Of a DNA stretch of 64,000 nt, positions 34,078 to 64,000 are shown one piece after another. Origin of the DNA: Fibrobacteria bacterium (lineage in GTDB: Bacteria > Fibrobacterota > Fibrobacteria > UBA11236). The notes beneath the pieces are model-generated. The model saw only the letters and a program-made list of their open reading frames with translations, was not told where the DNA came from and made no database searches. The first letter of the stretch is position 1, and the number at the start of each line of letters is the position of its first letter. The DNA lies in assembly GCA_041746255.1 (NCBI GenBank), contig JBGTHM010000030.1:7182-71181 (forward strand). Direction: 5' to 3'. The position numbers and the translations under genes were made by a program.

Positions 34078-34763
34078 TGTTTTTTTTCGTGGGGCGGCAG
34101 CCAGACGACGAAAGTTGCGGCATCACCTGCCTCCAGTCCATTTACCGTTTTTACGGGCATGAAATATCCTGGGAACGTCTAGCAGGCGAGATCGAGCATT
34201 GGCGAACCGGGGGCACGGTGAATGTGAACCTGGCGCGTCATGCCTTGCGCGAAGGTTTCTCCGCCGAAATCTGCACCTATAACATCCGCATATTCGATCC
34301 CACTTGGAGAGGCTTATCTTCCGGGGAGCTTTCGCACAAACTAAAGCTCCGTCAGGCGAAAATGCGGAGTAAGAAACAGAAAATGGTCATCGGTTTCTAC
34401 CTCGACTTTCTGGAACGGGGGGGAGTCATCCGGTTCGACGACCTTAACGAAGGTCTTTTCGATACCCTGTTCGAGGAAAACCGACCTATCATCGTAGGAC
34501 TTTCGGCGACCTATCTCTATCAAAGCATGCGGGAAACGCCCAATAACGTGGACAACGACATCATTGGCCAGCCCGTGGGTCATTTCGTGGTGGTTTCGGG
34601 TTGGGACCGTGCCAGGCGCGAAGTCATCATCCACGATCCTCTGCGCAAGAATCCCATCGCGGAGTCCGGCAATTACAACCTCCCCTTCACCAAGTTCAGC
34701 AACGCCGTTATGTTGGGCATCATCACTTACGACGAAAACCTCCTTATCATTTCAAAAAAATGA
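34078..34763 (+). CDS. C39-like papain-fold cysteine peptidase
   Basis: QPDDESCGITCLQSIYRFYG gives a Gln/Cys catalytic motif. A downstream His/Asp pair lies in GHFVVVSGWD. Start at MFFFVGRQ; the listed ORF 34026 includes upstream read-through. Confidence 0.55.
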
Positions 34764-36286
34764 CAAAACAATATTATGTGGTCGAGAACCCCCGGTACTG
34801 GCGGAAGCGCGTGCCGCAAGTCGAATTTTTAAGCGTCAGCGAATACCTGTTTTCCAAAGAATACCAGGACGTCAAACAGCTGCGCATCATCAATCTGGCC
34901 CGCAATTACGGCTATTTGGGCGCGGGCTATTACGTGTCGCTGGTGGCCGAAGCCCGCGGACACCAGGTGATTCCCAATTTATCCACGGTTCAAGCCTTAA
35001 GCCGGAAAGAGTTCTATCTCATCGAAACCGACGATTTGGACGCGCAAATCCAGAAGAGTCTGGCGAATATCACCGACGATAAGTTCGAGTTGAGCGTCTA
35101 TTTCGGCCGCAACGTGAATAAAAAATACGAGAAGCTTTCGCGCCTTTTCTTCAACTTGCTGCCATGCCCCTTGTTTCGGGTGCATTTCGTCAAAGAGAAG
35201 CGGTGGGCACTGCATTCCATCAAGCCGGTGGCATTGGATAAAATCCCTGCCTATCACGACGAAATTTTCATGGAGGCTTTGCTCGATTTCGGGGTACGAA
35301 GATGGAGCCTACGCAAGCGCGCGAACACCTTGCGCTACGATTTGGCCATTCTCTTCAATCCCCACGAAAGGTATTCTCCTTCCAGTGAAGCGACTCTCCA
35401 GAAGTTCATCAAGGCGGGAAAGACCGCCGGTTTGGCAGTGGAAATTATCGAGAAACGGGATTATGCCCATCTGCCCGAATTCGACGGATTGTTCATACGC
35501 GAAACCACCGCAATCGATCATCACACCTTCCGTTTCGCGCGCAAGGCCGAAAAAGAGAACATGGTGGTCATTGACGACCCGCGCTCCATTCTTTACTGCA
35601 CCAATAAGATTTTTCTGAACGAGGTGTTCAAGCGCGCCGGTGTCCCGCGGCCGCGCACCCTGGTGCTCAGCGAGGAAAACCTGGAGTCGTCGCTGCAGGA
35701 ATTCTCCTTTCCCATCATCCTTAAAATTCCCGACGGATCGTTCTCGCGCGGTGTGGTCAAGGCACGGGACGCGGCGGAACTCAAGGCGCATAGCAAAGAA
35801 TTTTTCCGTCATTCCGATTACATCATCGCCCAGGAGTTCATGCCCACCGAATTCGATTGGCGCATTGGAATCTTCAACGGAAAGCCCCTTTTCGCATGCC
35901 AATACTTCATGTCCCGCGACCACTGGCAGATTATCAACCACAAGGTCGAGGGCAGCGGCCGACTGGGCAACCATAAAACCCACCCTATCGAGTTGATGGA
36001 AGAAAACATTATCGCAACGGCCCTGAAATCATGCAAGTTGATAGGCGACGGCCTTTACGGCGTCGACTTGAAGGTGGTCGAGGGCAAGCCCTATGTTGTG
36101 GAGGTGAACGACAATCCCAATATCGATACCGGAGTTGAGGATGAGCTGCTTAAGGATAAGCTTTACCAGATAATCATGGAGGAATTCGCGGTGCGAATCG
36201 ATAAGCGGCGAATGCGCAAGGATGGTTCGGCTGGTCAGGCTGCGCAGGATTTACCGAAGCTTATGAATTCCAAGGGGTACGCTTGA
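34760..36286 (+). CDS. RimK-type ATP-grasp ligase (alpha-L-glutamate ligase-like) with a ~250-aa N-terminal extension of unknown function
   Basis: C-terminal ATP-grasp motifs (PIILKIPDGSFSRGVVKA..., IIAQEFMPTEFDWRIGIFNGK, GVDLKVVEGKPYVVEVNDNPNI). ATGA start/stop overlap with the peptidase gene. The true start is MTKQYYVVEN. Confidence 0.7.
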   Translation: MTKQYYVVENPRYWRKRVPQVEFLSVSEYLFSKEYQDVKQLRIINLARNYGYLGAGYYVSLVAEARGHQVIPNLSTVQALSRKEFYLIETDDLDAQIQKSLANITDDKFELSVYFGRNVNKKYEKLSRLFFNLLPCPLFRVHFVKEKRWALHSIKPVALDKIPAYHDEIFMEALLDFGVRRWSLRKRANTLRYDLAILFNPHERYSPSSEATLQKFIKAGKTAGLAVEIIEKRDYAHLPEFDGLFIRETTAIDHHTFRFARKAEKENMVVIDDPRSILYCTNKIFLNEVFKRAGVPRPRTLVLSEENLESSLQEFSFPIILKIPDGSFSRGVVKARDAAELKAHSKEFFRHSDYIIAQEFMPTEFDWRIGIFNGKPLFACQYFMSRDHWQIINHKVEGSGRLGNHKTHPIELMEENIIATALKSCKLIGDGLYGVDLKVVEGKPYVVEVNDNPNIDTGVEDELLKDKLYQIIMEEFAVRIDKRRMRKDGSAGQAAQDLPKLMNSKGYA

Positions 36287-37506
36287 ACTATAAGCCATTT
36301 GAAGTATTCGGTATTGAAATCGAATATGCCGTCGTGGGGCGCGATAACCTGCAGGTAAAGCCCGTGGTGGACAAGCTAATCACCACCTTGTGCGGAAGCC
36401 CCAACCTGTTTCCCACCTTGGGAAATGCGGAAGCCGATAACGAACTGGCAGCCCATGTGGTCGAAATGAAATGCAAGGTCCCCACGGCGGATTGGGCCGC
36501 CCAGGCGCGCGACTTCCAACAAATGGTCTCGCTTCTCAATAAAACCTTGGACGGTTTGGACTCCCGTCTCATGCCCGGAGGTTCGCATCCCTTTATGGAC
36601 CCGGCCCGGGAATCGAAATTGTGGGAGCATGACGGCCGCGAAATCTATTCGACCTATGACGGCATTTTCGGATGCCGCGGTCATGGCTGGTTCAATCTTC
36701 AGAGCGTGCATTTGAACCTGCCCTTCTCCGATGACGCCTCGTTTAACCTTCTGCATAATGCGGTCAGTCTATTGCTCCCCCTTATGCCGGCTTTGGCGGC
36801 GGCTTCACCCGTATTGGAGGGCAAGCGCCATGCCTGGAAGGACGCCCGGCTTTTCCATTACTTGCAAAACCAAAGACGATTTCCTTCTGTTATCGGTCCG
36901 GTGATTCCCGAGCCATTGCGAAGCGAAGCGGAATACCGAGCGAAGATTTTGGCGCCTATGTATAGGGAAATCGCTTCTTCCGATCCGGAGGGGTTGCTCC
37001 AGGATGAATGGCTCAATTCCCGCGCGGCCATCGCCCGTTTCGATCGGGGCGCCATCGAGGTGCGCTGTATCGATACGCAAGAATGCCCGCTCGCCGACCT
37101 GGCCCTCTGTTTTTTCTTTTCCGGATTGTTGCGCGCGCTGTGCGAATCGAGGGCGGATTTGTACGGAGCGCATGCGGAGGTGCCGGGTGGAGTTTCGCGG
37201 GCACTATTCGAGGACTGCGCGCGCGTCGGAATGGATGTGCTTCTGCCGAAGGTTTATCCGCAGGAAGTTTTCGGCCTTAGCCAGAGGGAACGCAGCGCGC
37301 GGGATTTTTTCCAGGATCTACTGTCGACCGGCTTCGCATATGCCACCGTAGCGGAGAATGCCTTATTCCGACCTGTGATTGAGCATATCTTGACGCGGGG
37401 AAGCTTAAGCGATCGAATCATACGGTTGGCCGGCCCGAGGGAGGACTGGCTTTCGGCCTATAGGGAGGTGTGTGAATGTCTCGCTACAGGGCGTTTGCTG
37501 GAGTAG
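36283..37506 (+). CDS. GCS2-family (YbdK-like) carboxylate-amine ligase / glutamate-cysteine ligase family 2 protein
   Basis: N-terminal FGIEIEYAVV and an overall GCS2-like sequence. 4-nt start/stop overlap with the ATP-grasp gene. Confidence 0.65.
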   Translation: MNYKPFEVFGIEIEYAVVGRDNLQVKPVVDKLITTLCGSPNLFPTLGNAEADNELAAHVVEMKCKVPTADWAAQARDFQQMVSLLNKTLDGLDSRLMPGGSHPFMDPARESKLWEHDGREIYSTYDGIFGCRGHGWFNLQSVHLNLPFSDDASFNLLHNAVSLLLPLMPALAAASPVLEGKRHAWKDARLFHYLQNQRRFPSVIGPVIPEPLRSEAEYRAKILAPMYREIASSDPEGLLQDEWLNSRAAIARFDRGAIEVRCIDTQECPLADLALCFFFSGLLRALCESRADLYGAHAEVPGGVSRALFEDCARVGMDVLLPKVYPQEVFGLSQRERSARDFFQDLLSTGFAYATVAENALFRPVIEHILTRGSLSDRIIRLAGPREDWLSAYREVCECLATGRLLE

Positions 37507-37653: not shown

Positions 37654-40266
37654 ATGCAGGATAAACTTTGGCAGCGCACCGCGCGTGCCTATGTCGAATT
37701 CAGCTACCGGCATCCCTGGCCGCCAATACTGATTTTTCTGGCGTTGGGCCTGATAACCCTTTATTTGGGTACCGGATTACGCATCGAAACCGATTTACGG
37801 GTTTTGCTCCCCAAAAAAACCCCTTCCGTGCAGGCCTTGGAGGAATCGGAGCGCCGCATGGGCAGTACCGATTTGTTCACCCTCGCGATTCAGGCGCCCT
37901 CCGCCGAAGCCGTGGCGGCCTTCCAAAGAGACGCGGCCGCGGCGCTCTCCGAATGGGAAGGCGTTTCCTGGGTGCAATTCGATCAAGAAAGGGGCTTTTT
38001 CGAAGAAAAGGCCTTGCTGTATATGCCTCTGGGCGAATTGGAAGATTTGCGGGGCCGTATTTCGGACTTGGTGGGCAAAACCTTCGTGGAGCGAAACCCC
38101 TTTCTCCTCGATTTGGGTGACGACGATGAGGATTCAGAATCCCAGGGATTGCAAGGCTGGCCCGATACTCTGGCCTTACGACGCCAAGGCCTACCTCCGG
38201 ATATCGTGGCCGCTTTGCTGGCGAAAATCAATACCCACGATAATCGCAGCCCTACCGAAGAGACCTCGGCCCCGCGCGCTGATGCTGAAGATCCCGTCCG
38301 TCCCGATTCCTTAGCTTCGCGGCTTATGGGTTGGGACGGTAGCCGCGGCGCTTGGGTAGGCGTGGTATTGGCTCAACTTGACCAGCCTTCCACCAATGCC
38401 CAATTTGCTCAAGGTATTTTCGAGAAAGGCGAGGCGCTTATTCGCGAGTTAGATCCCGGGCGTTATCATCCTGAGATGATTGCGCGGGTTGCGGGCGCCT
38501 ATCGCAATTTCAGCGAAATCAAGCAAGTCAATACCGACATGGCGCTGGCGGGAACGATTTCCTTTTTGGGTGTATCGATTCTGCTTTTTCTGTTCCTGCG
38601 ACGATTCATCAATTTCGTTCTGGTCATGAGTCCGATTTTCATCGCCAGTTTTTGGACGCTGGGCGTTACCTACCTGATTTACGGACGGCTCACCTTATTG
38701 ACGGCCTTTATCCTGTCGCTGGTTTTGGGATTGGGGATAGAGTACTCCATTCACCTTTTCGGCCGTTGGGCGGAAGAGCGCCGTAAAGGCCAACATTCGC
38801 TGGAAGCCATGGTGGTCTCCCTGACCTATACCGGTAGGGCGTTGCTTTCGGGAGCGGCCACCAATATTTTCGCCATGCTAAGCCTGCAAGCGGGTAATTT
38901 TACCGGCTTCAAGGAATACGGTATCGTGGTCAGCTTGGGCATCGCATTCTGCCTTATCGCCTCTTGGGTCGTGATACCTCCGCTTTTCTTTTTATTTACC
39001 CGTTGGGGGACGGGTCTGGAAAGGGCGTTTCAGAATACGGATAACCGCGTGACGCGGAGCCTTGTGGGGCTGTGTCGATTTTTGCTTCCGGGAGAAAGCC
39101 TGGTTTCGGGAGGTAAGCTGCTGCCCCGTTTGCGGATAAGCGGCAAGGCTTTGAACCGGGTAGGTTACGCCGGCTTGGCGTTCACCTGCCTATTGCTCTT
39201 CACTCCGCCCGCCCAATTCGAAAACGACTTCCGGAATCTCCGGGGCGAGAGCACGGGGGCCGGCATCAGTTATGGACGCGCCGTAGGTAGCGGACGCAAT
39301 ACCTCCCCCTCCATTATTCTGGGCCATAGCGTGGAGCAGATGCGCCAGGTGCACGATTCCCTGGCGGCGCGTTTCGGCAGTCCGCCCGACAGCATGCTGC
39401 AAAGCTTCGTCACCATTTCCTCCTTTGTGCCCACCGAAGAGGAACAAAGCGAGAAAATCGAGGTGCTGGAAGAAATCAACGAATTGCTCGATGCGCGGGC
39501 CCTGGCGAATGTGGACGGGGATACCCGCGAAAAACTCGATCTGTTGCGGAGCTATGCCAGTCCCAGGCCTTTCGACTTCTCCGACCTTCCGGAATGGGCC
39601 CGGCGCTTCCTGACCGAAGCCGACGGCAGCCATGGAAAAATCGGATATATGTACGGACGGCTGCAGGAAAGCGACGCGATTGAGAGCGGTAAATTCCAAG
39701 ACCGCTTCGGTACTCTCCACTCCGAGTCGGGCCCGGTGCAGGTGGCGTCCAGCGGTTTCATCTACGCGGACGTCGTGCGCATGGTCAAACGCGACGGGGT
39801 CTATCTCGCCCTGGCCACCGTGTTTTTCCTCATGATCATCACCTGGGTAGACATGCGGAATTGGCGCGGTATGGCTTCGGTCCTGGGTTTCATCCTATTG
39901 TCCGGCTTTTGGACCTATGCGTTGATGGGCTTATTCGGTCTTAAGTTGGGCATGTTCAATCTGGTCATCATCCCGACCATACTCTCGGTTTCCGTCGATT
40001 CCGTGATCCATATGTACCATCGGCGCATGGAATTGGGCGCGGGGAAAATAGGCGAACTCATCCATACCACGGGGTCGGCGGTTCTCACGGGAACCCTGAC
40101 CAACGCCTTCGGATTCGCGGGCTTATGCTTCGTCAACCATAAGGGTTTGCAAACACTCGGGTATATGGCGACGCTGGGCATCGCCTCGGGGTTGGTGATC
40201 TTATTCACGATTCTACCCTGGTTTCTGGAACGAATTTGCCCCAAGGAGCCCGTCCGGGAATATTGA
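37654..40266 (+). CDS. MMPL/RND-superfamily exporter (two 6-TM bundles with large periplasmic domains)
   Basis: 870 aa. Duplicated hydrophobic bundles (…FLGVSILLFLFL…, …GFILLSGFWTYALMGLFG…) typical of MMPL/HpnN-like transporters. Confidence 0.75.
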   Translation: MQDKLWQRTARAYVEFSYRHPWPPILIFLALGLITLYLGTGLRIETDLRVLLPKKTPSVQALEESERRMGSTDLFTLAIQAPSAEAVAAFQRDAAAALSEWEGVSWVQFDQERGFFEEKALLYMPLGELEDLRGRISDLVGKTFVERNPFLLDLGDDDEDSESQGLQGWPDTLALRRQGLPPDIVAALLAKINTHDNRSPTEETSAPRADAEDPVRPDSLASRLMGWDGSRGAWVGVVLAQLDQPSTNAQFAQGIFEKGEALIRELDPGRYHPEMIARVAGAYRNFSEIKQVNTDMALAGTISFLGVSILLFLFLRRFINFVLVMSPIFIASFWTLGVTYLIYGRLTLLTAFILSLVLGLGIEYSIHLFGRWAEERRKGQHSLEAMVVSLTYTGRALLSGAATNIFAMLSLQAGNFTGFKEYGIVVSLGIAFCLIASWVVIPPLFFLFTRWGTGLERAFQNTDNRVTRSLVGLCRFLLPGESLVSGGKLLPRLRISGKALNRVGYAGLAFTCLLLFTPPAQFENDFRNLRGESTGAGISYGRAVGSGRNTSPSIILGHSVEQMRQVHDSLAARFGSPPDSMLQSFVTISSFVPTEEEQSEKIEVLEEINELLDARALANVDGDTREKLDLLRSYASPRPFDFSDLPEWARRFLTEADGSHGKIGYMYGRLQESDAIESGKFQDRFGTLHSESGPVQVASSGFIYADVVRMVKRDGVYLALATVFFLMIITWVDMRNWRGMASVLGFILLSGFWTYALMGLFGLKLGMFNLVIIPTILSVSVDSVIHMYHRRMELGAGKIGELIHTTGSAVLTGTLTNAFGFAGLCFVNHKGLQTLGYMATLGIASGLVILFTILPWFLERICPKEPVREY

Positions 40267-53277: not shown

Positions 53278-55791
53278 ATGAGAAACCTCCGCAAAGATTT
53301 CGCCAAGCTTCTCTGCGTGTCGCTATTAGCGCCCGTCGTAGTGCATGCCTTGAACGGGTTCGAAGTCGAGGGGGGGCAGGTGGGGCAAAGAGTGCTTACC
53401 CTGGCCATAGACGATTCGGTGCGGCTCCCTGACCTTTCCAAACTCCAGGTAAGCGGTCATCAAATACAAGCGGCCGTCTTTATTGAAGAATACGATTTGC
53501 CCTTCGTCGTCTCCCCGAATCTGGTGGACGCCGTCGCGGACCCCACGCTTCGGGTTATTCGACAGGTGCGGCCGGGCCTGTATGAATTCGAAAGTTCCGC
53601 CGGGTTTCTTCCCCGTCAGGGCATGATTCTCAGCGATACCGCATTGGGGGGAGTGTTGGTGCGGGTCAACCGATTCGAACCGACGCCAGGCAAGGGAGGA
53701 TTCCGGCGCCGCTGGATGCTCGAAACCGTTCCGGCGGCATTGACCGACGCCATTTTTTCCTGTGATCTTTTTTTCAGCACCGATATTAATCTGAACTTGG
53801 CATTTCGCGAACGCAAAGGCTCGCGAGAGGTGGAGGATATCGGTACGGGCGCCGGGCTTCCCGAAAACGGTCTCCTGGAATTCTCGCTCTTGGATGGGAA
53901 GGTACTGGCCAGTCCCCGTTTAACGGGCCGCTTACGCATCAATGATGGGCGGGTTGAGGTCTTCACGTCCTCCGTTGAGGGAGAGTTCGAATATATCGGG
54001 AAAATGGAAAGCTCCCTGCAGGGTGTGGGAAATTATCGCCTTGAAGAAGCGCTTCCCGAAGGTATCGCTATCAACATCCCTCTCGAGAAGGGACTTTTCT
54101 TGCGAATTTCGCATCGAGCTCAATTCATCGTCGAAGCCTCTTCGATTACCGGTACTCTAACCGGGCGGGCGGGACTGGACCTGAAAAGCCGCGTTCGCAG
54201 TTCTCTCGATTTTGCCAAGGGCGAATGGAACCCGACCTCGCATTACACTCTTTTGCCCAATTCCAAAACCAGACAACACGTGGAAGGTGAGGGAAGCATG
54301 AAGCTTACACTGCAGTCCAACCTTGACGTACGTCTTAACGGTCGCCAGGGTCCGGTGCACATTTTCGAGCCATACATGCGGTTATCTTCCGAGAGCCTGT
54401 CATCCGCCCCCGCATCCCCCTTCGACCCCGCCGGTCGCGGTACCAATCGTTTTGTCAATGTGGGATTACACTCCCACCTGTTTCTAGGAGTCAATCTGGA
54501 TGGGGAGGCGGTCAGACGAAATTTCCAGGTATTTTCCCGGGAGCTGCCTTTCCTGGCTCCCCCGGCTCGAGGAGCACTTTCCCTGAGGGAGGTTGACTCG
54601 AGCCAGGCGGTGCTGGTTTACCATGGTCCTCCCGGGGTGGAAGCTTTTCAAGTCCAGGTTTGGGAAGAAGGGCAATGGTGGAATTGGTCGGAATCACCCG
54701 GTCCCCGTATCCGGCTTTCCGGCCTGGCTCCGGGAAAAACCTATCGTGTGCGTGTCGTAGGCATCAACGCCATGGGTTCAGGTGAACCCTTTCCCCAGGA
54801 TGGCCTGAGTTTCACCACTGCCCAAAGGAACCAACCTCCTTTTGTTCCCGAAGCTTATTTTCCGTATCCCGGCGCTTTAGCCGGCCAATTGAATATCGAA
54901 CTTTCTTGGAAGGGGGGAGACCCGGACGGCGATGAAGTCTTTTACGATGTTTATCTGGATACGTTGTTACCACCTAAACAGCAAGTGAGTCAGGGTATAA
55001 AGGATTCCAGCCATATCCAGGCAGGCTTAAAGCCTGGCACACGCTATTACTGGAAAATCGTGGCCAATGACGGAAATGTCGCAACCGAAAGTCCGACCTG
55101 GAGTTTTACCACCTTGGAGGCTCCCCAGGTAGCCAAGCCCCGGGTTCACCCGGAGCCCTCAGAGATGCTATTCCTGCCGGGTGGATCGTTTCTGAGAAAG
55201 GATGGAAGGCGCGTCGAGGTTCGCAAATTCTTCCTTCAGAAATATGAAGTGAATCAAGCGGATTTCCGCAAGGTGATGGGCATCAATCCTTCCCACCACC
55301 ATAACGATGCCTACCCCGTAGAAAAGGTTTTGTGGGAAGAGGCTGCGACCTATTGTAGGGAAATCGGCGGCCGGCTTCCCACGGAAGCGGAGTGGGAATA
55401 TGCGGCCCGCGCGGGGTTTTCCGGGGGCGATTTCTGGGGGAATCCAAATCCGGATCAATACGCCTGGTACTTCACCAATTCCAGTCAACGTACGCATAGG
55501 GTGGGCAAAAAAGATGCCAATCCCTGGGGTTTGCATGATGTTCTGGGCAATGTCTCGGAATGGGTGCAAGATTGGTATGGAGAGTATTCTCCCGATGATC
55601 TGGATAACCCTACCGGGCCCGAAACGGGGACGACCAAGGTGGTTAGGGGCGCGAGCTGGTACAGTGAGCCGCAAAGCCTCAATCCCACCAAACGTTTCTC
55701 CAATCGTCCGGGCTTCCGGAATTATAAAGTGGGTTTCCGTTGCGCCGCCGACGTGGGATCCGACGACCGGATAAGTTCAACGGACGATTGA
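53278..55791 (+). CDS. Large secreted multidomain protein with fibronectin type III-like domains and a C-terminal FGE-sulfatase (SUMF1-like) domain that is probably non-catalytic
   Basis: FGE-domain motifs (FLQKYEVNQADF, RLPTEAEWEYAARAG, WGLHDVLGNVSEWVQDWY, VVRGASW). The paired catalytic Cys of formylglycine-generating enzymes are absent. Confidence 0.6.
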   Translation: MRNLRKDFAKLLCVSLLAPVVVHALNGFEVEGGQVGQRVLTLAIDDSVRLPDLSKLQVSGHQIQAAVFIEEYDLPFVVSPNLVDAVADPTLRVIRQVRPGLYEFESSAGFLPRQGMILSDTALGGVLVRVNRFEPTPGKGGFRRRWMLETVPAALTDAIFSCDLFFSTDINLNLAFRERKGSREVEDIGTGAGLPENGLLEFSLLDGKVLASPRLTGRLRINDGRVEVFTSSVEGEFEYIGKMESSLQGVGNYRLEEALPEGIAINIPLEKGLFLRISHRAQFIVEASSITGTLTGRAGLDLKSRVRSSLDFAKGEWNPTSHYTLLPNSKTRQHVEGEGSMKLTLQSNLDVRLNGRQGPVHIFEPYMRLSSESLSSAPASPFDPAGRGTNRFVNVGLHSHLFLGVNLDGEAVRRNFQVFSRELPFLAPPARGALSLREVDSSQAVLVYHGPPGVEAFQVQVWEEGQWWNWSESPGPRIRLSGLAPGKTYRVRVVGINAMGSGEPFPQDGLSFTTAQRNQPPFVPEAYFPYPGALAGQLNIELSWKGGDPDGDEVFYDVYLDTLLPPKQQVSQGIKDSSHIQAGLKPGTRYYWKIVANDGNVATESPTWSFTTLEAPQVAKPRVHPEPSEMLFLPGGSFLRKDGRRVEVRKFFLQKYEVNQADFRKVMGINPSHHHNDAYPVEKVLWEEAATYCREIGGRLPTEAEWEYAARAGFSGGDFWGNPNPDQYAWYFTNSSQRTHRVGKKDANPWGLHDVLGNVSEWVQDWYGEYSPDDLDNPTGPETGTTKVVRGASWYSEPQSLNPTKRFSNRPGFRNYKVGFRCAADVGSDDRISSTDD

Positions 55792-55827: not shown

Positions 55828-57333
55828 ATGAGCCGGCTTAAGGCATTGGGTAAAGAATCGCTGATATACGGCGTATCTTCCATCCTCAGCCGCTTCCTCA
55901 ATTTTCTTCTGGTTCCCTTTTATACCCATGTGCTCACCACCGCGGAATTCGGTGTCAGTTATATCATTTTCGCCTTCCTGGCCTTTCTGAATATCGTCTA
56001 TCAATTCGGGCTCGATTCGGCCTACCTGCGCCTCGGCGCCGATGCCGAAGGGGATGCGCGCCGGAAAATCTTCTCCTCCGCCTTTTGGAGCCAGGCGGCG
56101 CTCATGGGCTGTTTGTCGATAGGGCTTTATTTCCTCTTCCCTTCCCTAGGCCGCGCCTTTTTAGTGCCGGACGAATACCACCCGCTTTTGACCATCGCCA
56201 TCGGAATTCTGATTCTCGATACCTTGACGGTAACTCCCTTTGCGCACTTGCGCTTAACCCACAAGGCTTGGGCTTACGCGTCCATTCGTCTGGGCAACGT
56301 GCTTATCAACGTGGGCGCGAATCTGTATCTGGTACTGGTTTTGAAAATGGGCCTCATGGGAATCTTTCTTGCCAACCTGCTCGCCAGCGGGGTCACCTTG
56401 GCGTTACTCCTTCCCGTCATCGTTTCGCAATTGCGGCTGCGGTGGTCGAAGCCGGAAATGCGGGCCTTGCTGCTGTTCGGCTTGCCGTTGGTTCCGGCCG
56501 GGCTGTACGGAATCGTGAACGAAATGGCGGGCCGGCTGTTTCTCAAAATGCTCGGGCCCGACGACATCGCGCGTCTCTATCCCGGAAGCGGTTATACGGT
56601 GCTGGAGCTGACGGGGATTTTTTCGGCGGCCTGGAAGTTGGGCGTCTTCGGTTTGCTGTTGGTGCAGATGTACCGCATGGCCTGGCAGCCTTTCTTTTTG
56701 CAGCGCTATAAAGATGCCGACGCGCCCCAGCTCTTCGGGCGCGTGTTGCGGGTTCTGACGCTTTTCGTATGTGGCGCCTCCATCGCCCTGATGCTTTTCC
56801 TCGACAAGCTGGTGGCGCTGGAATTCTTCGGACGTAATCTGATCCACCGCGATTTCTGGCCCGGGCTCGAAATCGTGCCCGCAGTCCTTTTATCCTATGC
56901 CTTTCAGGCCTGGTTCGTGCATTTCACCCTGGGCGTGTACATTGCGAAACAGACGCGTTACCTCATCTGGTGCAACGGAGTGGGGGCGGCCATTACGGTT
57001 GCGGGCAATTTTCTGCTTGTGCCCCGCTTCGGGCTTTGGGGCGCCGTATTGGCGGCCAATTTCTGCTATCTGGTCATGGCCTTCATGCTCTACCGCCGCA
57101 GCCAACGGCTGTTCCCTATCGCCGTGGAATGGCGGAAAATGGCCCCTGTGCTGATTTGGGCCGGTTTAGGCTGGACACTGGGAACGGCTATTCAAATCGA
57201 TCCCAGCTTGCTGGGGTGGTTGGGCCGTATCGGCGCCCTCGCCCTTTTCATTGTGATTCCCTTTGTGCTGGGAGGCATTTCGCGCGCGGAGAGGGGTCAA
57301 TTGCTTTCGATGCTGGGTTCCAAACGGTCCTAG
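55828..57333 (+). CDS. Wzx-like oligosaccharide flippase / polysaccharide biosynthesis family membrane protein
   Basis: 501 aa, ~12-14 TM helices, MOP-flippase-like N-terminus (ESLIYGVSSILSRFLNFLLVPFYTHVLT). Confidence 0.7.
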   Translation: MSRLKALGKESLIYGVSSILSRFLNFLLVPFYTHVLTTAEFGVSYIIFAFLAFLNIVYQFGLDSAYLRLGADAEGDARRKIFSSAFWSQAALMGCLSIGLYFLFPSLGRAFLVPDEYHPLLTIAIGILILDTLTVTPFAHLRLTHKAWAYASIRLGNVLINVGANLYLVLVLKMGLMGIFLANLLASGVTLALLLPVIVSQLRLRWSKPEMRALLLFGLPLVPAGLYGIVNEMAGRLFLKMLGPDDIARLYPGSGYTVLELTGIFSAAWKLGVFGLLLVQMYRMAWQPFFLQRYKDADAPQLFGRVLRVLTLFVCGASIALMLFLDKLVALEFFGRNLIHRDFWPGLEIVPAVLLSYAFQAWFVHFTLGVYIAKQTRYLIWCNGVGAAITVAGNFLLVPRFGLWGAVLAANFCYLVMAFMLYRRSQRLFPIAVEWRKMAPVLIWAGLGWTLGTAIQIDPSLLGWLGRIGALALFIVIPFVLGGISRAERGQLLSMLGSKRS

Positions 57334-57472: not shown

Positions 57473-58366
57473 ATGAAAACACAAAGAAGCAGAATCGCTT
57501 TGGGTCTGGGAATGGCGCTTATCGCCATCGGTGGTTATTTCATTTTTTCGCGCGCTGTCGATAGCGTCGAATCGGAAACCCAGGCCGTCTCTGCGACCGC
57601 GGATAGGTTGGAAGACCGCGCGGAACGCAGCCGAAGATTGTCGCATCTGTTTGGGGAGCCAAAGCCGCTCGGAGAAATTTATGCGAAAAAAGTCGCACAG
57701 GGACCGGCGGACCCCATCGAGTTTGGCCGTTATCTCGTGCAAGACTTGCTCAATTGTTATGCTTGTCATTCGGCCGATTTCAAGACCAACAACGCCATGC
57801 ACCCGGAAAAATCGCAAGGCTATCTCGGGGGAGGCAACCTATTGCTCGACATTGATCAACAGCCCATACGCGCCGCGAATATCACGCTCGACAGTGAAAC
57901 CGGCATCGGATCGTGGAGCGAAGCGGAATTCGTTAAAGCCATGCGCTCGGGCATCCGGCCCGACGGCATCCCCTTCCGCTATCCCATGACCCGTTATCCC
58001 GAATTGGGTACGGATGCCTGGCGCGCGGTGTGGGCCTATTTGAAAACCGTTCCGCCCATTTCCAATGCCGTGGAGCGCGATTATCCGGATTTCGAAGGGC
58101 GGGCCTCGCTGGGCGAGCGGCTCTACTGGAAAAATGCCTGCGTATCTTGCCATGGAGCCTCGGGAAAAGGCGTCGGCGATTTGACCCGAGTCAATACGGA
58201 CTTCCCCCACGACTCCACCCTCATCCAGTGGATTCGCAACCCCTCGGCTTTCAATCCCGGCACCAAAATGCCCGGCTTCGATGGGGTTATTCCCGATGAG
58301 AGCTTTGCCCCGCTGGTGGCTTTTCTTCGTGAACTTGCAGCCCGCAATACCGCTTCCGTGAATTAG
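57473..58366 (+). CDS. Diheme c-type cytochrome
   Basis: Signal/anchor sequence. Two CxxCH motifs (CYACH, CVSCH). Confidence 0.75.
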   Translation: MKTQRSRIALGLGMALIAIGGYFIFSRAVDSVESETQAVSATADRLEDRAERSRRLSHLFGEPKPLGEIYAKKVAQGPADPIEFGRYLVQDLLNCYACHSADFKTNNAMHPEKSQGYLGGGNLLLDIDQQPIRAANITLDSETGIGSWSEAEFVKAMRSGIRPDGIPFRYPMTRYPELGTDAWRAVWAYLKTVPPISNAVERDYPDFEGRASLGERLYWKNACVSCHGASGKGVGDLTRVNTDFPHDSTLIQWIRNPSAFNPGTKMPGFDGVIPDESFAPLVAFLRELAARNTASVN

Positions 58367-58404: not shown

Positions 58405-58899
58405 ATGAACTTGCTTTTATCCTCGCTTTTGCTCAAACCCGAAAAACTCCTGGACGAGTGCGTTCAGGATCGGTTTCAGGCAAGTGGGCCCGGCGGACAG
58501 AAACGCAATCGGGTCTATAGCGGCCTGCGCCTTAAACATATTCCCACGGGTTTGCAGGTGACTGCTTCGGAGCATCGCGAAAGCCGGCGCAATCTCGACG
58601 AGGCTTTGCGCAAGCTGCGCCTGGAGCTGGCCTTGGGCGCCGCGGATGCGCGTGATCTCCCCGCGCCACCTCCAATAATGAACTTTCGGGCCAAAGTGAA
58701 TTCCGCCCATGAGGATTTTCCGCTCCTCGCCTTCATGGCTTTGCGCGCTTTGGACGAATCACAGGGCAGATTGGAGGCGGCGGCGACGCGACTGGGGGTA
58801 AGCTCGTCGGCTTTGGCGCGTTTTTACAAATTGCACACAAACCTATGGACGCGTGCGGGGGCACTGCGTACAGCCAACGGTTTGGGCCCGCTCAAGTAG
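58405..58899 (+). CDS. RF-1-domain peptidyl-tRNA hydrolase-like protein (ArfB/YaeJ-like, GGQ motif)
   Basis: SGPGGQKRNRV GGQ motif and a basic C-terminal tail. Confidence 0.55.
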   Translation: MNLLLSSLLLKPEKLLDECVQDRFQASGPGGQKRNRVYSGLRLKHIPTGLQVTASEHRESRRNLDEALRKLRLELALGAADARDLPAPPPIMNFRAKVNSAHEDFPLLAFMALRALDESQGRLEAAATRLGVSSSALARFYKLHTNLWTRAGALRTANGLGPLK

Positions 58900-60167: not shown

Positions 60168-61130
60168 TTGATGATGGGAACTCTCTCCAAACTTCGAGTA
60201 CTTGCGCTGGTGGGGTCGTTGGCGATCGCGCCGGTTTTCGCTACGATATGCGATCAAACCTACCGCTTGCAATCGGCGACGGAAACAATCCTGGAAGGCC
60301 CAAGCCTGAATAACCTCACCGCAACCAAGAAGCAATTGAAGTTGGATTTGACGGATGCCACCATCCTGAAGAACGAAATGCAATACATTCTCCTCAAGGA
60401 ATTCGAAGGGGCTTGCAATTATCAAAAGAGGATGGTGAAATTCCGCGCGCGACCTGCGAAAGCGAATTGGGCGAACGCCGAACAGGAACTTTTCGTGCGG
60501 CTTTATGATGCTTCGCTTGTCGGCTCTAATTTTAAATATTGGTTCCACATGTCAGCCGATACCAGTAAATTCCTTGGCTCCGATATTTTGGGTAAAAGCC
60601 AGCAGGAAACCGACTATACCAGGTGGCATATGATTGCCACCATGATCGATTCGACTAAAGGAGAAAGCGGTCTTTGGTCTGTGGGAGAACCTTACTACCC
60701 CAGCCTTTCCATCCATTACGATTCGACGACGCTTGACTCCCTTTTTCTAAAATCATGGCGTGAAATTAAACTCGGACCGAACCGCCGAGCCCACTTCAAA
60801 GTGCAAATCATCAAAACCGTATACGATTCCATTGGGCCGACAACCCAATTGGCGCAACCTTTGGCCCGTGAGGGAAGAGCCGTGCCCGAATTTCATGCTT
60901 CGCAAACCGGCAAATCGGTACTGATTCGTCTCAGTGAGAAGGCTCCCGATGCCGAGGTGATTACGCTGTATAATATGATGGGCCGGAAAGTAGCGGTATT
61001 GCATCCTACTGGGAATGCCTTTCAATGGAATGGCAAAACCGAGGGCGGCAGCGACGCGCCCAAGGGTATTTATTTCGTGCAAGGCCGGAGCGGAATCCTG
61101 GGTAAATTCTTTTATTCGCCGGTGATTTAG
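60168..61130 (+). CDS. Secreted protein with a T9SS (Por-type) C-terminal sorting domain
   Basis: Signal peptide. C-terminus EVITLYNMMGRKVAVL...FQWNGKTEGG...KGIYFVQ.... Confidence 0.55.
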   Translation: MMMGTLSKLRVLALVGSLAIAPVFATICDQTYRLQSATETILEGPSLNNLTATKKQLKLDLTDATILKNEMQYILLKEFEGACNYQKRMVKFRARPAKANWANAEQELFVRLYDASLVGSNFKYWFHMSADTSKFLGSDILGKSQQETDYTRWHMIATMIDSTKGESGLWSVGEPYYPSLSIHYDSTTLDSLFLKSWREIKLGPNRRAHFKVQIIKTVYDSIGPTTQLAQPLAREGRAVPEFHASQTGKSVLIRLSEKAPDAEVITLYNMMGRKVAVLHPTGNAFQWNGKTEGGSDAPKGIYFVQGRSGILGKFFYSPVI

Positions 61131-61344
61131 GCGCGATTGAAATAAGTAATCGTTTGGAAGTAACGATTACTCTAACCTACTCTTTTTCGAAAGCTCCTGA
61201 CTCTTCCCCCAATTCGCTTAATTCCGCGATCCGCCCGATATTCGGGCCTTTGCAACCGTTTAATTCAGTGGCCAAGCACCCGGTAAAATACTTATTTCCC
61301 TCCATGGGTTTCCTATATCAATCGTTAATCGCTTAGTCGGCTCC

Positions 61345-62523
61345 ATGGCCATACTTTGTGATTTCCATTCCCACCGACCGCCGTACCGGATCAGTAACTC
61401 CGAGGCGGCGTCTTGGTTGGCGAGCGCGCATGGCCGGGCGGAGAAGACGCGCTCTACCGATCCGTACTTTTCGGAGACCGCGTTTACGGAGCGCATGCAT
61501 AGGCAATTGCTGCGTTTCGGACCGGGGTCGGAAAGCGTGGCCTGCCGAGGCCATCACCTGGAAGACTATGGACATCACGACTGGGAGCGCATGGCCATCC
61601 ACCGCCTGCACGAATCCCCTAACGGCGAGGGCATCGGCCCGCGTATGGAAAAATTTTCGGAAATAAGCGCGGCCGTGCTGGAAGAGATTTATCCTGAGGA
61701 CGCCAAAGCGCCCGACGATATCATCCATGTTACCTGCACCGGATATGTGGCGCCCAGCGCTGCGCAAAACCTGGTAGTCAAACGCGGATGGAGCGAAACC
61801 ACCCGGGTTTTGCATGCCTACCATATGGGCTGCTACGCCGCGTTGCCCGCGGTGCGCATAGCCTCCGGGTTGTTGACGGCTACTCAAACGGGCATCGCTT
61901 CGAGCCGCGTCGACATCGTCCATAACGAAGTGTGTACCCTGCACCTCGACCCCGGTCGGCATGAAGCCGAGCAATTGGTGGTGCAAAGCCTTTTCGGAGA
62001 CGGCCATATCCGCTATTCCGTCCTGGCCGATGGTGAAGATGCCGCCGGCGTGCGCGATGCACACGGGCTGGAAGTTTTGGCCGTGCAGGAGACTTTGGTG
62101 CCGGACTCGGCTAACGACATGACTTGGATTCCGGGATCCCACGGTATGCGTATGAGCCTTTCGCGCGAGGTGCCCGAACATATCGCCGGCAAGCTGCGCG
62201 AATTCGTACAAAAACTTTACGCGCTCGGCGGCTACCGCCCAGCCGAAGTATGGTCAAAGCATCCCCGAACCCTTTTTGCCGTGCATCCCGGCGGGCCGCG
62301 CATCATCGATAGCGTCGCCGCCCTGCTCGAACTCAAGCCGGACCAGGTGGAAGCCAGCCGCCGCGTACTGAAAAACTTTGGAAACATGTCTTCGGCCACC
62401 GCACCGCATATATGGATGGACATGCTGCACGACGATTCGGTAGCGGCCGGCACTCGCATAATCAGCCTCGCCTTCGGCCCCGGCCTTACCATACACGGCT
62501 GTCTGCTCAGGAAAATAAGATGA
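61345..62523 (+). CDS. Type III polyketide synthase (chalcone/stilbene synthase superfamily)
   Basis: Cys-His-Asn triad contexts HVTCTGYVAPSA, FAVHPGGPRIIDSV and NFGNMSSATAPHIW. Confidence 0.75.
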   Translation: MAILCDFHSHRPPYRISNSEAASWLASAHGRAEKTRSTDPYFSETAFTERMHRQLLRFGPGSESVACRGHHLEDYGHHDWERMAIHRLHESPNGEGIGPRMEKFSEISAAVLEEIYPEDAKAPDDIIHVTCTGYVAPSAAQNLVVKRGWSETTRVLHAYHMGCYAALPAVRIASGLLTATQTGIASSRVDIVHNEVCTLHLDPGRHEAEQLVVQSLFGDGHIRYSVLADGEDAAGVRDAHGLEVLAVQETLVPDSANDMTWIPGSHGMRMSLSREVPEHIAGKLREFVQKLYALGGYRPAEVWSKHPRTLFAVHPGGPRIIDSVAALLELKPDQVEASRRVLKNFGNMSSATAPHIWMDMLHDDSVAAGTRIISLAFGPGLTIHGCLLRKIR

Positions 62524-63089
62524 TGGGGCTGGCGGCGGTGGGGCTCTTTCTGGGCCATTCCCTGCTCATGCTCCTCGACGAATTCCACTTCCATTACCGG
62601 CGCGGTTTGCCCCGCTGGGAAAGATGGGGTCACCCGCTTGATACCCTGTCGGTGCTCGCTTGTTATCTCTTCGCCCTGTCCATGCCGTTTTCCATAGGCG
62701 CGGCTTGGGGATATGCCGCCCTGGCAGTAGGCTCCTGTCTGTTGGTAACCAAAGATGAAGGGGTGCATGCGGAACGGTGCGGCAAAGGAGAGCAATGGCT
62801 ACATTCCGTCTTGTTCGTATTGCACCCGCTGCTGTTGGCCTTCGCGGGTTGGTATTGGTTGGTTACTCAAGGCCCGGCGGTGGAATCGGCGTTTGCCCGG
62901 GTAGGTCTGCCCGGGGTGTTTGAATTGGGTCTTTTCCGGATGTTTCTTCCCGTGCATGCGGGTTTGACCGCTCTTTTTCTTATTTACCAAATAATATGGT
63001 GGAATTGGATATGGAAAGAAAAACCGTCGAGCTTACCGAAAAGGCGTATGCCGTTGCCCAGCCGGAGAACGGAAGCCGCCGTGCGGTAG
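62520..63089 (+). CDS. His-rich integral membrane protein of unknown function
   Basis: ~5 TM helices. Conserved-looking His clusters (LLDEFHFHYRR, GVHAERCGKGEQWLHS). ATGA overlap with the PKS stop. Confidence 0.45.
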   Translation: MMGLAAVGLFLGHSLLMLLDEFHFHYRRGLPRWERWGHPLDTLSVLACYLFALSMPFSIGAAWGYAALAVGSCLLVTKDEGVHAERCGKGEQWLHSVLFVLHPLLLAFAGWYWLVTQGPAVESAFARVGLPGVFELGLFRMFLPVHAGLTALFLIYQIIWWNWIWKEKPSSLPKRRMPLPSRRTEAAVR

Positions 63090-63835
63090 ATTTCCCCGGC
63101 GGGGTGAACAACGCCTTCTACGAGGATTTGGGCCGCCGTTGGTACGAAGCCAAAGACGATCCCGTGGCCCTGTTGCGGGCCGAGGGCCGGCTCAAGCACG
63201 CCTGGGTGAGCCGCGAAGTCGATCGCCTCCTTCCCGGAGGAAACCGGCGGGTCTTGGACATCGGTTGCGGCGCAGGCTTCGCGCTCAAGCATTTGGCCAA
63301 AGAGGGCCATAGTGGCTACGGCGTGGACCGTTCCCCCTCAAGCCTGCGCATGGCGCGCGAGTTCGCCGCTCCCTTGCCATTGCGCTTGCAGGTGGCCGAT
63401 GCCTATCAAGTGCCCTATGAAGACGCTTCTTTCGACGTGGTGCTGGCGCTGGATTTTCTAGAGCATGTAGAGCAACCCGAAAAAGTGGTGGCCGAAGCCG
63501 CGCGGCTTTTGCGGCCCGGAGGCTTGTTCTTCTTCCATACCTTCAACCGCAACCCCTTGGCGTGGCTTATCATCATCAAAGGCGTGGAATGGTTCGTCAA
63601 GAATACACCCGCGCATATGCATGTGCTTCCGTTATTCATCAAGCCATCGGAATTGCGCGGTTACTGCGAGCGCGAGGGCATGCGCATCGAAGCCATGACG
63701 GGGTTACGTCCGGACTTCATGCGCAAGGCTTTTTGGAAAATGTTGGCGACCCGCGAAGTGCCGGACGATTTCGAATTCGTGTTGACGTCCTCGCTGACGC
63801 TCTCCTATCTGGGAGCCGCGAGGCGCGAAGCTTAG
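63011..63835 (+). CDS. Class I SAM-dependent methyltransferase (UbiG/Methyltransf_11-like)
   Basis: VLDIGCGAGFALKHLAKEG...DASFDVVLALDFLEHVEQP...LLRPGGLFFF. Start uncertain (62996 or 63011). It overlaps the upstream membrane ORF by ~80 bp. Confidence 0.75.
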   Translation: MERKTVELTEKAYAVAQPENGSRRAVDFPGGVNNAFYEDLGRRWYEAKDDPVALLRAEGRLKHAWVSREVDRLLPGGNRRVLDIGCGAGFALKHLAKEGHSGYGVDRSPSSLRMAREFAAPLPLRLQVADAYQVPYEDASFDVVLALDFLEHVEQPEKVVAEAARLLRPGGLFFFHTFNRNPLAWLIIIKGVEWFVKNTPAHMHVLPLFIKPSELRGYCEREGMRIEAMTGLRPDFMRKAFWKMLATREVPDDFEFVLTSSLTLSYLGAARREA

Positions 63836-64000
63836 AAGAACATCCGCCACATGAATTCGAGATTGTGGCGAAGGTCGCCTTCGCCTACGACTTCGGTGAT
63901 GGGGTGGATGATGGAATATCCCAATTGCACGCCGGTGTGCCGGTTGAAGTCATAATTGGATCCCACATAATAGCGGAGATGGGAGTCGTTGGGCCTGCCT
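63836..64000 (-). CDS. 3' end of an outer-membrane beta-barrel protein gene (partial, continues beyond the window)
   Basis: The reverse-strand translation ends ...DLRHNLEFMWRMFF*, with the aromatic C-terminal Phe typical of OMPs. Confidence 0.35.

Follow-up and report, generated by a model that had tools for sequence, protein, structure and literature searches.

A conserved three-gene cassette in a Fibrobacteria genome joins a predicted alkylresorcinol synthase, a five-helix membrane protein of an undescribed family and a UbiG-like methyltransferase

What would a type III polyketide synthase (PKS), a small membrane protein and an S-adenosylmethionine (SAM)-dependent methyltransferase (MT) make together when their genes follow one another on the same strand? 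The question is raised by a locus near the end of a 64,000-nucleotide stretch of DNA, hereafter the window, from a Fibrobacteria bacterium (NCBI GenBank assembly GCA_041746255.1, contig JBGTHM010000030.1, positions 7,182 to 71,181 of the forward strand). A preliminary description made from the sequence had read the locus as a chalcone-synthase-fold PKS, a five-helix membrane protein with His clusters and a UbiG-like O-methyltransferase, and had likened it to bacterial loci for alkylresorcinol and alkylpyrone methyl ethers. Our analysis suggests that the operon probably makes a methylated membrane lipid derived from an alkylresorcinol. The whole chain that we propose, from the alkylresorcinol through ring hydroxylation by the membrane protein to UbiG-type O-methylation, falls a little short of an even chance in our estimate, and the assignment of the membrane protein specifically as the ring oxygenase, made by analogy with characterised operons, is more tentative still.

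The PKS was recognised by the Pfam models Chal_sti_synt_C (PF02797, 85.6 bits) and Chal_sti_synt_N (PF00195, 32.4 bits), each with a cut-off of 27, and its catalytic triad is intact as Cys163 (HMGC), His314 (HPGG) and Asn347 (GNMSS), in agreement with the preliminary description. Among solved structures its best matches were the ArsC entries 3vs9 and 3vs8 (239 and 233 bits, E 5.6e-70), the alignment spanning residues 79-391 of the window PKS, while the other solved type III PKSs (Pks11, stilbene and chalcone synthases, Steely1 and THNS) scored 91 bits or less; all 60 of the 60 best PDB matches listed were type III PKSs. A possible identity as FabH, named beforehand as the alternative, was not borne out on alignment, as the FabH models reached no further than the last ~80 residues and scored 27-33 bits where 249-292 would be required. 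With type III PKS models and structures scoring far higher, the reading of this protein as FabH/KAS III was ruled out. The best scoring of the named homologues of the PKS come from metagenome-assembled genomes (MAGs) of Fibrobacteres.

The two ArsC structures also bear on the likely product. We take 3vs8 to be the wild-type ArsC of Azotobacter vinelandii and 3vs9 to be its G284W mutant; the two differ at one aligned residue ('mtgvpgsh' in 3vs8 and 'mtwvpgsh' in 3vs9), and the window PKS reads MTW261IPGSH, with Trp261 aligning to the position of residue 281 in ArsB and 284 in ArsC. The W281 of ArsB leads to aldol cyclisation and alkylresorcinols, and the Gly of ArsC to pyrones (PMC9927152). Both the triad and the Trp were invariant in 77 cassette PKSs, comprising the window PKS and 76 homologues from related loci. 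Because the ArsB-type Trp and the triad are present and invariant in the cassette PKSs, the window PKS is predicted to be an alkylresorcinol synthase, and since the resorcinol-specifying Trp occurs in all 77, pyrones are an unlikely product of the cassette. The earlier parallel with methyl-ether loci therefore stands for the resorcinols, and its alkylpyrone part appears unlikely.

To what extent the three genes belong together was assessed by tblastn of the three window proteins against related genomic loci, of which the best 80 were compared. In 77 of the 80 the genes for PKS, membrane protein and MT lie on one strand, the remaining three being cut by contig ends, and the genes abut or overlap in nearly all of these 77 loci. 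The cassette spans at least five phyla, namely Chlamydiota, Fibrobacteria, Myxococcota, Bdellovibrionota and Acidobacteriota, with named carriers among Rhabdochlamydia, Parachlamydiales, Fibrobacteria, Polyangiaceae, Myxococcales, Bdellovibrionales, Silvanigrellaceae and Acidobacteriota/Blastocatellia and several labelled Verrucomicrobia; the 80 best loci belong mostly to uncultured environmental Chlamydiota with genomes of ~2-2.5 Mb. The flanking genes beyond the trio vary between phyla. A trio that falls apart in related genomes, which had been set out beforehand as evidence to the contrary, was thus not observed, and the comparisons of sequence and gene order indicate that it is a conserved unit and not a chance neighbourhood. 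Besides, homologues number hundreds to thousands for each of the three genes, which are therefore not chance open reading frames (ORFs).

All three window proteins have their nearest relative, at 63-71% identity, at L003/L004 on the 3.7 kb contig CAYNXV010000265.1, which is binned as 'uncultured Bifidobacteriales'. This placement is probably erroneous, since the relatives that come next are Fibrobacteria; the Fibrobacteria MAG locus L027 also ranks among the closer relatives. At locus L087, from a MAG labelled Holophaga sp., the PKS is followed by the start of the membrane-protein gene at the contig end (DEFGFHRRREVPRWEW). The contig ends ~100 nt past the PKS stop, and this stretch (5392-5496), missed by the gene caller, encodes the N-terminus of the membrane protein (LPFALQGLAMGADEFGFHRRREVPRWEW).

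The membrane protein and the MT are moreover fused into one ORF in several lineages. Such fusions, with the membrane domain N-terminal, were found at L010 (1502-2884), L070 (5977-7317) and L086 (6176-7402) and in at least nine representative clusters (P0264, P0277, P0302, P0333, P0334, P0336, P0348, P0389 and P0323), the fused ORFs being ~400-460 aa long. The alignable membrane part of the L086 fusion ends after the fourth transmembrane helix (TM4), with ~40 divergent residues before the MT. The fusions support a physical coupling of the membrane protein to the MT and a cytoplasmic C-terminus of the former. The unity of the operon is thus argued by the ATGA overlap of its first two genes, the synteny in 77 of 80 loci with differing flanks, and the membrane-MT fusions. 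The ATGA overlap itself, which the preliminary description had pointed out, is present, and it suggests translational coupling of PKS and membrane protein; the start of the membrane protein at ATG 62520 agrees with the N-termini of 32 homologues.

Other genes recur beside the cassette in part of the related loci. A Tpx/Redoxin (AhpC-TSA) thiol peroxidase gene stands just downstream of the MT in 41 of the 80 loci (e.g. L075 8470-8925) and a TauE/SafE membrane-protein gene upstream in 36 (e.g. L043 4024-4809), both in chlamydial-type loci (in the range L006-L083) only, and they were accordingly set aside as lineage synteny and not counted as cassette genes. Genes for Fe-SOD, an encapsulated ferritin/encapsulin and DJ-1 lie nearby at L086; together with Tpx and TauE they may reflect an oxidative-stress theme, or lineage synteny only. 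At the single locus L085 (8174-9088), in a Polyangiaceae MAG, a UbiA-family prenyltransferase gene is convergent to the cassette, which recalls the agq cluster of Actinoplanes, reported to prenylate an alkyl-methoxyhydroquinone.

The third gene was assigned to the UbiG family, as had been proposed earlier. Its product scored 115.5 bits against the NCBIfam UbiG equivalog TIGR01983 (cut-off 102.95), matched the Pfam models Methyltransf_11, Methyltransf_25 and Methyltransf_23 as a class I SAM enzyme, and found its closest solved structure in E. coli UbiG (4kdc, 101 bits, E 5.6e-28, residues 41-240), the alignment taking in 'ffhTfNRNplaWL...G.E...P...H....FIKPsEL'. No ubi genes were present among the annotated ORFs of the window, and throughout the related loci the cassette MT is always linked to the PKS instead of to ubi genes. 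For these two reasons we call the enzyme UbiG-like in fold and chemistry, as judged by its sequence, and not a housekeeping UbiG. UbiG methylates ring hydroxyls that adjoin another oxygen on membrane-bound substrates (2-polyprenyl-6-hydroxyphenol and 3-demethylubiquinol), and its action directly follows hydroxylation by UbiI and UbiF (in other organisms by Coq7).

The layout given in the preliminary description stands as regards the trio and its coordinates; the start of the MT is less settled. Its longest ORF overlaps the membrane-protein gene by 94 nt, and a frame comparison with the closest relative (L004) left ATG 62996, ATG 63011 and GTG 63104 as possible starts. ATG 62996 is created by codons of the conserved IIWWN of the membrane protein (ataATGGTGGAAt), and the homologous MTs mostly align from residue ~37 onward only. 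The motif 'RRAVDFPGG', just 5' of the possible GTG start, is conserved in the nearest relative, and the stretch between ATG 62996 and this motif is unconserved, with indels against L004 in multiples of three; GTG 63104 itself lies 14 nt past the stop of the membrane gene.

The membrane protein is the component that most sets the locus apart. Hydropathy gave five hydrophobic segments, and an AlphaFold2 model built from a 33-sequence alignment (pLDDT 88.6, pTM 0.81) has five long helices and two short ones (2-28, 32-54, 59-77, 79-86, 89-116, 119-127 and 136-164), in line with the five helices described at the outset. By the positive-inside rule, counts of K and R make loops 1-2 and 3-4 cytoplasmic, as well as the basic C-terminal tail, with the N-terminus on the outer side; the predicted cytoplasmic C-terminus agrees with the C-terminal fusion to a cytoplasmic MT. 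Neither Pfam nor NCBIfam matched the protein, and Pfam searches at E<=10 with all 33 aligned family members returned scattered single-member noise only, without any ICMT, PEMT or other methyltransferase model in the 33. It matched no transporter family. The alignment profile found nothing among PDB sequences at E<=10, and Foldseek of the model against the PDB yielded no match better than E 1.6, with TM-scores <=0.4. The remote-homology check that had been recommended thus came back without a match from Pfam, NCBIfam, PDB profile and Foldseek alike, and the earlier remark that the membrane component differs from the known ones holds, as it has no ICMT/PEMT or other Pfam match and no solved counterpart.

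The protein is nevertheless far from solitary. An exhaustive hidden Markov model search of 1.84 billion representatives yielded 324 clusters at 50% identity, the homologues amounted to at least 778 clusters at 90% identity, and 489 related stretches were found in a scan of 185,579 species genomes. All the homologues bear source names that are either 'hypothetical protein' or obvious mislabels. The family is compact, a fused methyltransferase being the only recurrent extra domain among the longer members checked. These sequence data indicate that the protein is a member of a real, sizeable family that is as yet undescribed.

Through an alignment of 239 members we identified the residues that the family keeps. 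Fifteen are at least 99% conserved (D20, E21, H25, R28, E34, H38, D41, S72, K78, D79, E80, H83, E91, H95 and H102), namely five His, four Glu and three Asp plus one each of Arg, Lys and Ser, and C87 is conserved at 95%; the five His (H25, H38, H83, H95 and H102) give substance to the His clusters noticed earlier. The conserved residues all sit within or next to loops 1-2 and 3-4, on the membrane face predicted to be cytoplasmic, these loops being assigned to the cytoplasm because they are rich in K and R. In any one helix they recur at intervals of 3-4 residues (7 or 11 to the next), which places them on one helix face. Invariant Glu/His pairs, 3-4 residues apart, occur on four helices (E21/H25, E34/H38, E80/H83 and E91/H95). 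The four pairs and the three Asp resemble a metal site, mono- or binuclear, at the interface of the membrane, where an amphiphilic phenol would be expected to have its head group, and the conservation supports a catalytic rather than a passive role. The halves 1-58 and 59-118 each carry DE-x(2-3)-H...E-x3-H, a visual resemblance only; an internal duplication was rejected, as hhalign aligned nothing but the 'DE' dipeptide (E 0.086, probability <1%).

We also compared the whole cassette with known systems. Its nearest counterparts are the operons srsABC (Streptomyces griseus), pkqABC (Mycobacterium smegmatis and Streptomyces MNU77) and hidABC (Cyanobium and Planctomycetota), which combine a type III PKS, an MT and a FAD oxidoreductase or hydroxylase, and which turn an alkylresorcinol into methoxylated alkyl phenols or benzoquinones located in membranes, some of them respiratory carriers in hypoxic or dormant cells. 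The window cassette resembles these in having three genes, a type III PKS predicted to form alkylresorcinols with a SAM methyltransferase, likened by class, and one partner presumed to modify the ring. That partner is a soluble ring-hydroxylating FAD enzyme in the known operons (SrsC, PkqC and HidB), whereas in the window it is a five-TM protein with no known cofactor-binding domain. The gene order differs as well, being MT-oxidoreductase-PKS in hid, PKS-MT-oxidoreductase in pkq and PKS-membrane protein-MT in the window. Neither in the cassette nor conserved beside it, as judged by Pfam and the neighbours in related loci, was a FAD-binding domain found. As the characterised operons consist of PKS, MT and FAD enzyme and the cassette has no conserved FAD enzyme, the membrane protein would by analogy occupy the hydroxylase slot.

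The other parallels are looser. The window PKS is closest, among solved structures, to the ArsB/ArsC pair of Azotobacter vinelandii and shares the ArsB-type Trp, but it has no adjacent type I fatty-acid synthase (ArsA/ArsD), and the ars operon has neither a methyltransferase nor a membrane protein. The bpsAB locus of Bacillus subtilis, which makes alkylpyrone methyl ethers, likewise pairs a type III PKS with a membrane-embedded partner and a methylation step. There, however, the membrane partner BpsB carries out the methylation as an enzyme of the ICMT family, while the window membrane protein has no ICMT/PEMT match at E<=10, a separate soluble class I MT is present, and resorcinols are predicted rather than pyrones. 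The layout was earlier likened to both srsAB and bpsAB; the likeness is best kept for the logic of srsABC, pkqABC and hidABC, and is weaker for the two-gene bpsAB. Judged by sequence, the locus is without the FAD oxidoreductase of the srs, pkq and hid operons and without the ICMT of bpsAB; by function, and by analogy, it appears to belong with the bacterial alkylresorcinol and polyketide-quinone operons.

Ubiquinone tailoring by Coq7 or UbiF and then UbiG/Coq3 offers a second kind of likeness, as there too a UbiG-family O-methyltransferase acts on a membrane-bound aromatic head group, with the hydroxylate-then-methylate logic that we propose here; ring and tail would come in the window from a polyketide synthase, and not from 4-hydroxybenzoate and a prenyl chain. 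Coq7 is an interfacial di-iron carboxylate enzyme with Glu/His ligands. Coq7 and AOX carry the ligand set E...ExxH...E...ExxH on a four-helix bundle; the window protein has its four invariant Glu/His pairs on four helices, one pair being ExxH. It is integral with five TM helices rather than monotopic, and shows no sequence or Foldseek similarity to Coq7, AOX or any PDB entry. The membrane di-iron fatty-acid hydroxylase/desaturase superfamily is marked by the histidine boxes HX3-4H, HX2-3HH and HX2-3HH; the alignment of the window protein family has no HH boxes, and neither Pfam nor Foldseek gave a match, the latter also none to SCD1- or Scs7-type structures. The sorgoleone pathway of Sorghum converts an alkylresorcinol into a methoxy-benzoquinone by an O-methyltransferase and a membrane-bound oxygenase, but that oxygenase is a haem P450, and the pathway is eukaryotic and not organised as an operon.

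From these comparisons we propose the following route. The PKS, in the well-supported step, would extend a fatty-acyl thioester with malonyl-CoA and close the ring by aldol condensation to a 5-alkylresorcinol. This amphiphilic product would partition into the inner leaflet of the cytoplasmic membrane, where its ring would come into contact with the cluster of invariant Asp, Glu and His residues that the five-TM protein has at the cytoplasmic face; the cluster may bind a metal, most plausibly iron, as one or two ions and hydroxylate the ring. The UbiG-like MT, held beside the membrane protein, would then O-methylate a ring hydroxyl which would by then adjoin another hydroxyl, the class of this enzyme being established and its substrate presumed. 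As the end product we predict a 'polyketide quinone' of the methoxy-alkyl-hydroquinone/benzoquinone type or, at a minimum, a phenolic lipid with a methoxy group, which could serve as a membrane redox carrier, an antioxidant or an envelope lipid.

Several observations weigh against ring hydroxylation by the membrane protein. An electron donor is not encoded in the cassette, and since HidA methylates plain alkylresorcinol, a hydroxylation step is not strictly needed. Only E80/H83 of the four Glu/His pairs fits ExxH, the HxxxH/HxxHH boxes of membrane di-iron enzymes are absent from the alignment of the family, and Pfam, PDB and Foldseek searches gave no sequence or fold relation to any known oxygenase. 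The duplication that would imply a pseudo-symmetric dimetal site found no support in hhalign. The proposed clustering of the invariant residues in space is deduced from sequence and topology, and the indications of metal binding, O2 use and hydroxylation are all indirect. The cultured Holophaga species is a strict anaerobe; an O2-dependent step would be awkward if the Holophaga sp. MAG is anaerobic too, and the cassette may occur in an anaerobic lineage.

Some of these observations suit a membrane protein that has no redox role and docks the MT, and perhaps the PKS, at the membrane, presenting the head group of the alkylresorcinol to the soluble MT, so that the product would be an alkylresorcinol with one or two methyl ether groups, in the manner of srsAB or hidCA. 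The recurrent membrane-MT fusions are what docking would lead one to expect, HidA needs no prior hydroxylation of its alkylresorcinol, and the missing electron donor and the lack of resemblance to any oxygenase would cease to be a difficulty. Yet the 12 invariant His/Glu/Asp residues, with the Arg, Lys and Ser, kept over five phyla far exceed the needs of an anchor, a UbiG-type enzyme normally acts on a hydroxyl adjoining another oxygen, and E. coli UbiG binds membranes unaided; we consider docking unlikely, while giving it real weight. The same His/Asp/Glu cluster would suit a hydrolytic Zn or Mn site equally well as a redox site, and the protein might accordingly be a metal-dependent enzyme of another kind, such as a hydrolase or acyltransferase that supplies the starter (fatty-acyl from membrane lipids or from acyl-acyl carrier protein, acyl-ACP), a decarboxylase of alkylresorcylic acid, or a desaturase of the alkyl tail. 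The cassette has no acyl-activating enzyme or ACP to account for the starter unit. However, ArsB-type enzymes with Trp281 release decarboxylated resorcinols themselves, type III PKSs usually accept acyl-CoA or acyl-ACP directly, and the order PKS, membrane protein, MT together with the fusion to the MT indicates that the membrane protein acts after the PKS and not before it. We judge such an enzyme improbable.

A role as exporter, flippase or self-protection factor, by which the phenolic lipid would reach the outer leaflet, the outer membrane or the envelope of resting cells, would be in keeping with a small multi-helix membrane protein, with the alkylresorcinols of Azotobacter that end up in cyst envelopes, and with the resting or infectious stages of many carriers (Chlamydiota, Myxococcota and Bdellovibrionota). 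The invariant charged residues, however, lie at one membrane face and not along a transmembrane path, no transporter family was matched, and fusion to a cytoplasmic enzyme would be unusual for a flippase, which makes this role very improbable. There is next to no chance that the grouping is incidental, with the 'PKS' a FabH-type KAS III, the MT a housekeeping UbiG and the small ORF not a real gene. The weak partial matches to FabH models and an MT score above the UbiG equivalog cut-off could be read in that way, but type III PKS models and structures win widely, the trio is syntenic in 77 of 80 loci, no other ubi genes were seen among the ORFs annotated near the cassette, and the small ORF is backed by at least 778 homologue clusters and by a fold predicted with confidence; an incidental or misannotated grouping is refuted by the PKS profile and structure matches and the synteny of the trio. 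Ring hydroxylation by the membrane protein, followed by methylation, is the reading that we prefer among these, at the tentative strength given above.

The features of the locus are collected in Table 1. A 214-nt gap upstream and a convergent ORF downstream, whose stop overlaps that of the MT by 4 nt, bound the unit on both sides. Scans for promoters, terminators, riboswitches and tRNAs around the operon gave nothing informative; no sigma-70-like promoter was found in 61131..61344, and an Rfam scan was likewise without a match.

Table 1. Coordinates of the cassette and its associated features in the window
Feature	Coordinates	Strand	Basis and remarks
Type III PKS gene	61345..62523	+	ORF map, 392 aa; ArsB/ArsC-like, predicted alkylresorcinol synthase
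Five-TM membrane protein gene	62520..63089	+	189 aa; candidate metal-dependent ring-modifying enzyme
UbiG-family class I SAM-dependent O-methyltransferase gene	62996..63835	+	279 aa counted from first ATG
ATGA start/stop overlap of PKS gene and membrane-protein gene	62520..62523	+	Sequence reads aagATGAtg
Upstream intergenic region, 214 nt; presumed operon promoter region	61131..61344	+	ORF map
Convergent ORF outside the operon, C-terminus ...EFMWRMFF*	63832..64000	-	Runs off window end; minus-strand translation
Overlap of the poorly conserved basic C-terminal tail of the membrane protein with the 5' end of the longest MT ORF	62996..63089	+	
Conserved motif 1 of the membrane protein: D20-E21-x3-H25-x2-R28-x5-E34-x3-H38-P-x-D41	62577..62642	+	TM1 end, loop, TM2 start
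Conserved motif 2 of the membrane protein: S72-x5-K78-D79-E80-x2-H83-x3-C87-x3-E91-x3-H95-x6-H102	62733..62825	+	TM3 end, short helix, TM4 start

Around the cassette, a 292-aa antisense ORF (61333-62211, minus strand) lies wholly within the PKS gene and is interpreted as a shadow ORF, the coding region there being GC-rich. The gene directly upstream of the operon (60168-61130, plus strand) encodes a 320-aa protein with a weak match to a CHU_C/type IX secretion sorting domain (E 7e-4, below the cut-off), and is probably sorted by that system, in keeping with a host of the Fibrobacterota or Bacteroidota type. Further upstream on the plus strand, a 297-aa cytochrome c with two CxxCH motifs (57473-58366) suggests a respiring organism, and its gene adjoins that of a 164-aa RF-1-domain protein, an ArfB-like peptidyl-tRNA hydrolase (58405-58899). 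The product of 53278-55791 (plus strand), 837 aa long, combines a fibronectin type III domain with an FGE-sulfatase (SUMF1-like) domain at its C-terminus, and its gene is followed by a Polysacc_synt flippase-like gene (55828-57333). Apart from these, the plus strand carries a RimK-like ATP-grasp protein with a RLAN N-terminal domain and then a GCS2 glutamate-cysteine-ligase-family gene (34601-37506), followed by an 870-aa MMPL-family transporter (37654-40266); the three may form a small module for peptide or lipid modification and export.

The known operons of PKS, MT and hydroxylase yield alkylresorcinol ethers and polyketide quinones, lipids that in Azotobacter, Streptomyces and mycobacteria serve in cysts and spores and as alternative carriers in respiration. 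The window cassette is a compact and strictly conserved version of such an operon, with a membrane protein undescribed in the databases in what would be the hydroxylase slot. Type III PKS clusters of environmental chlamydiae have been counted by genome mining (PMC9666466, PMC13229535) and are not known to have been dissected, and a full-text literature search found no description of the membrane-protein family or of the cassette. In its widest form our proposal is that the five-TM protein founds a new class of integral-membrane metallo-oxygenases, with a dimetal site built at the cytoplasmic interface from the four Glu/His pairs, and that together with the PKS and the UbiG-like MT it provides a minimal three-gene route to a ubiquinone-like 'polyketide quinone'. 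The lipid would serve environmental Chlamydiota, Fibrobacterota, Myxococcota, Bdellovibrionota and Acidobacteriota as an antioxidant or for carrying electrons in the membrane, perhaps in connection with resting or infectious stages; taken as a whole this proposal is speculative and rather unlikely. Should the membrane protein prove not to be an oxygenase, it would still be an obligatory and unexplained partner of a UbiG-type enzyme, and should it prove to be one, it would stand for a new class of enzyme, and the cassette for a pathway that leads to a quinone with three genes.

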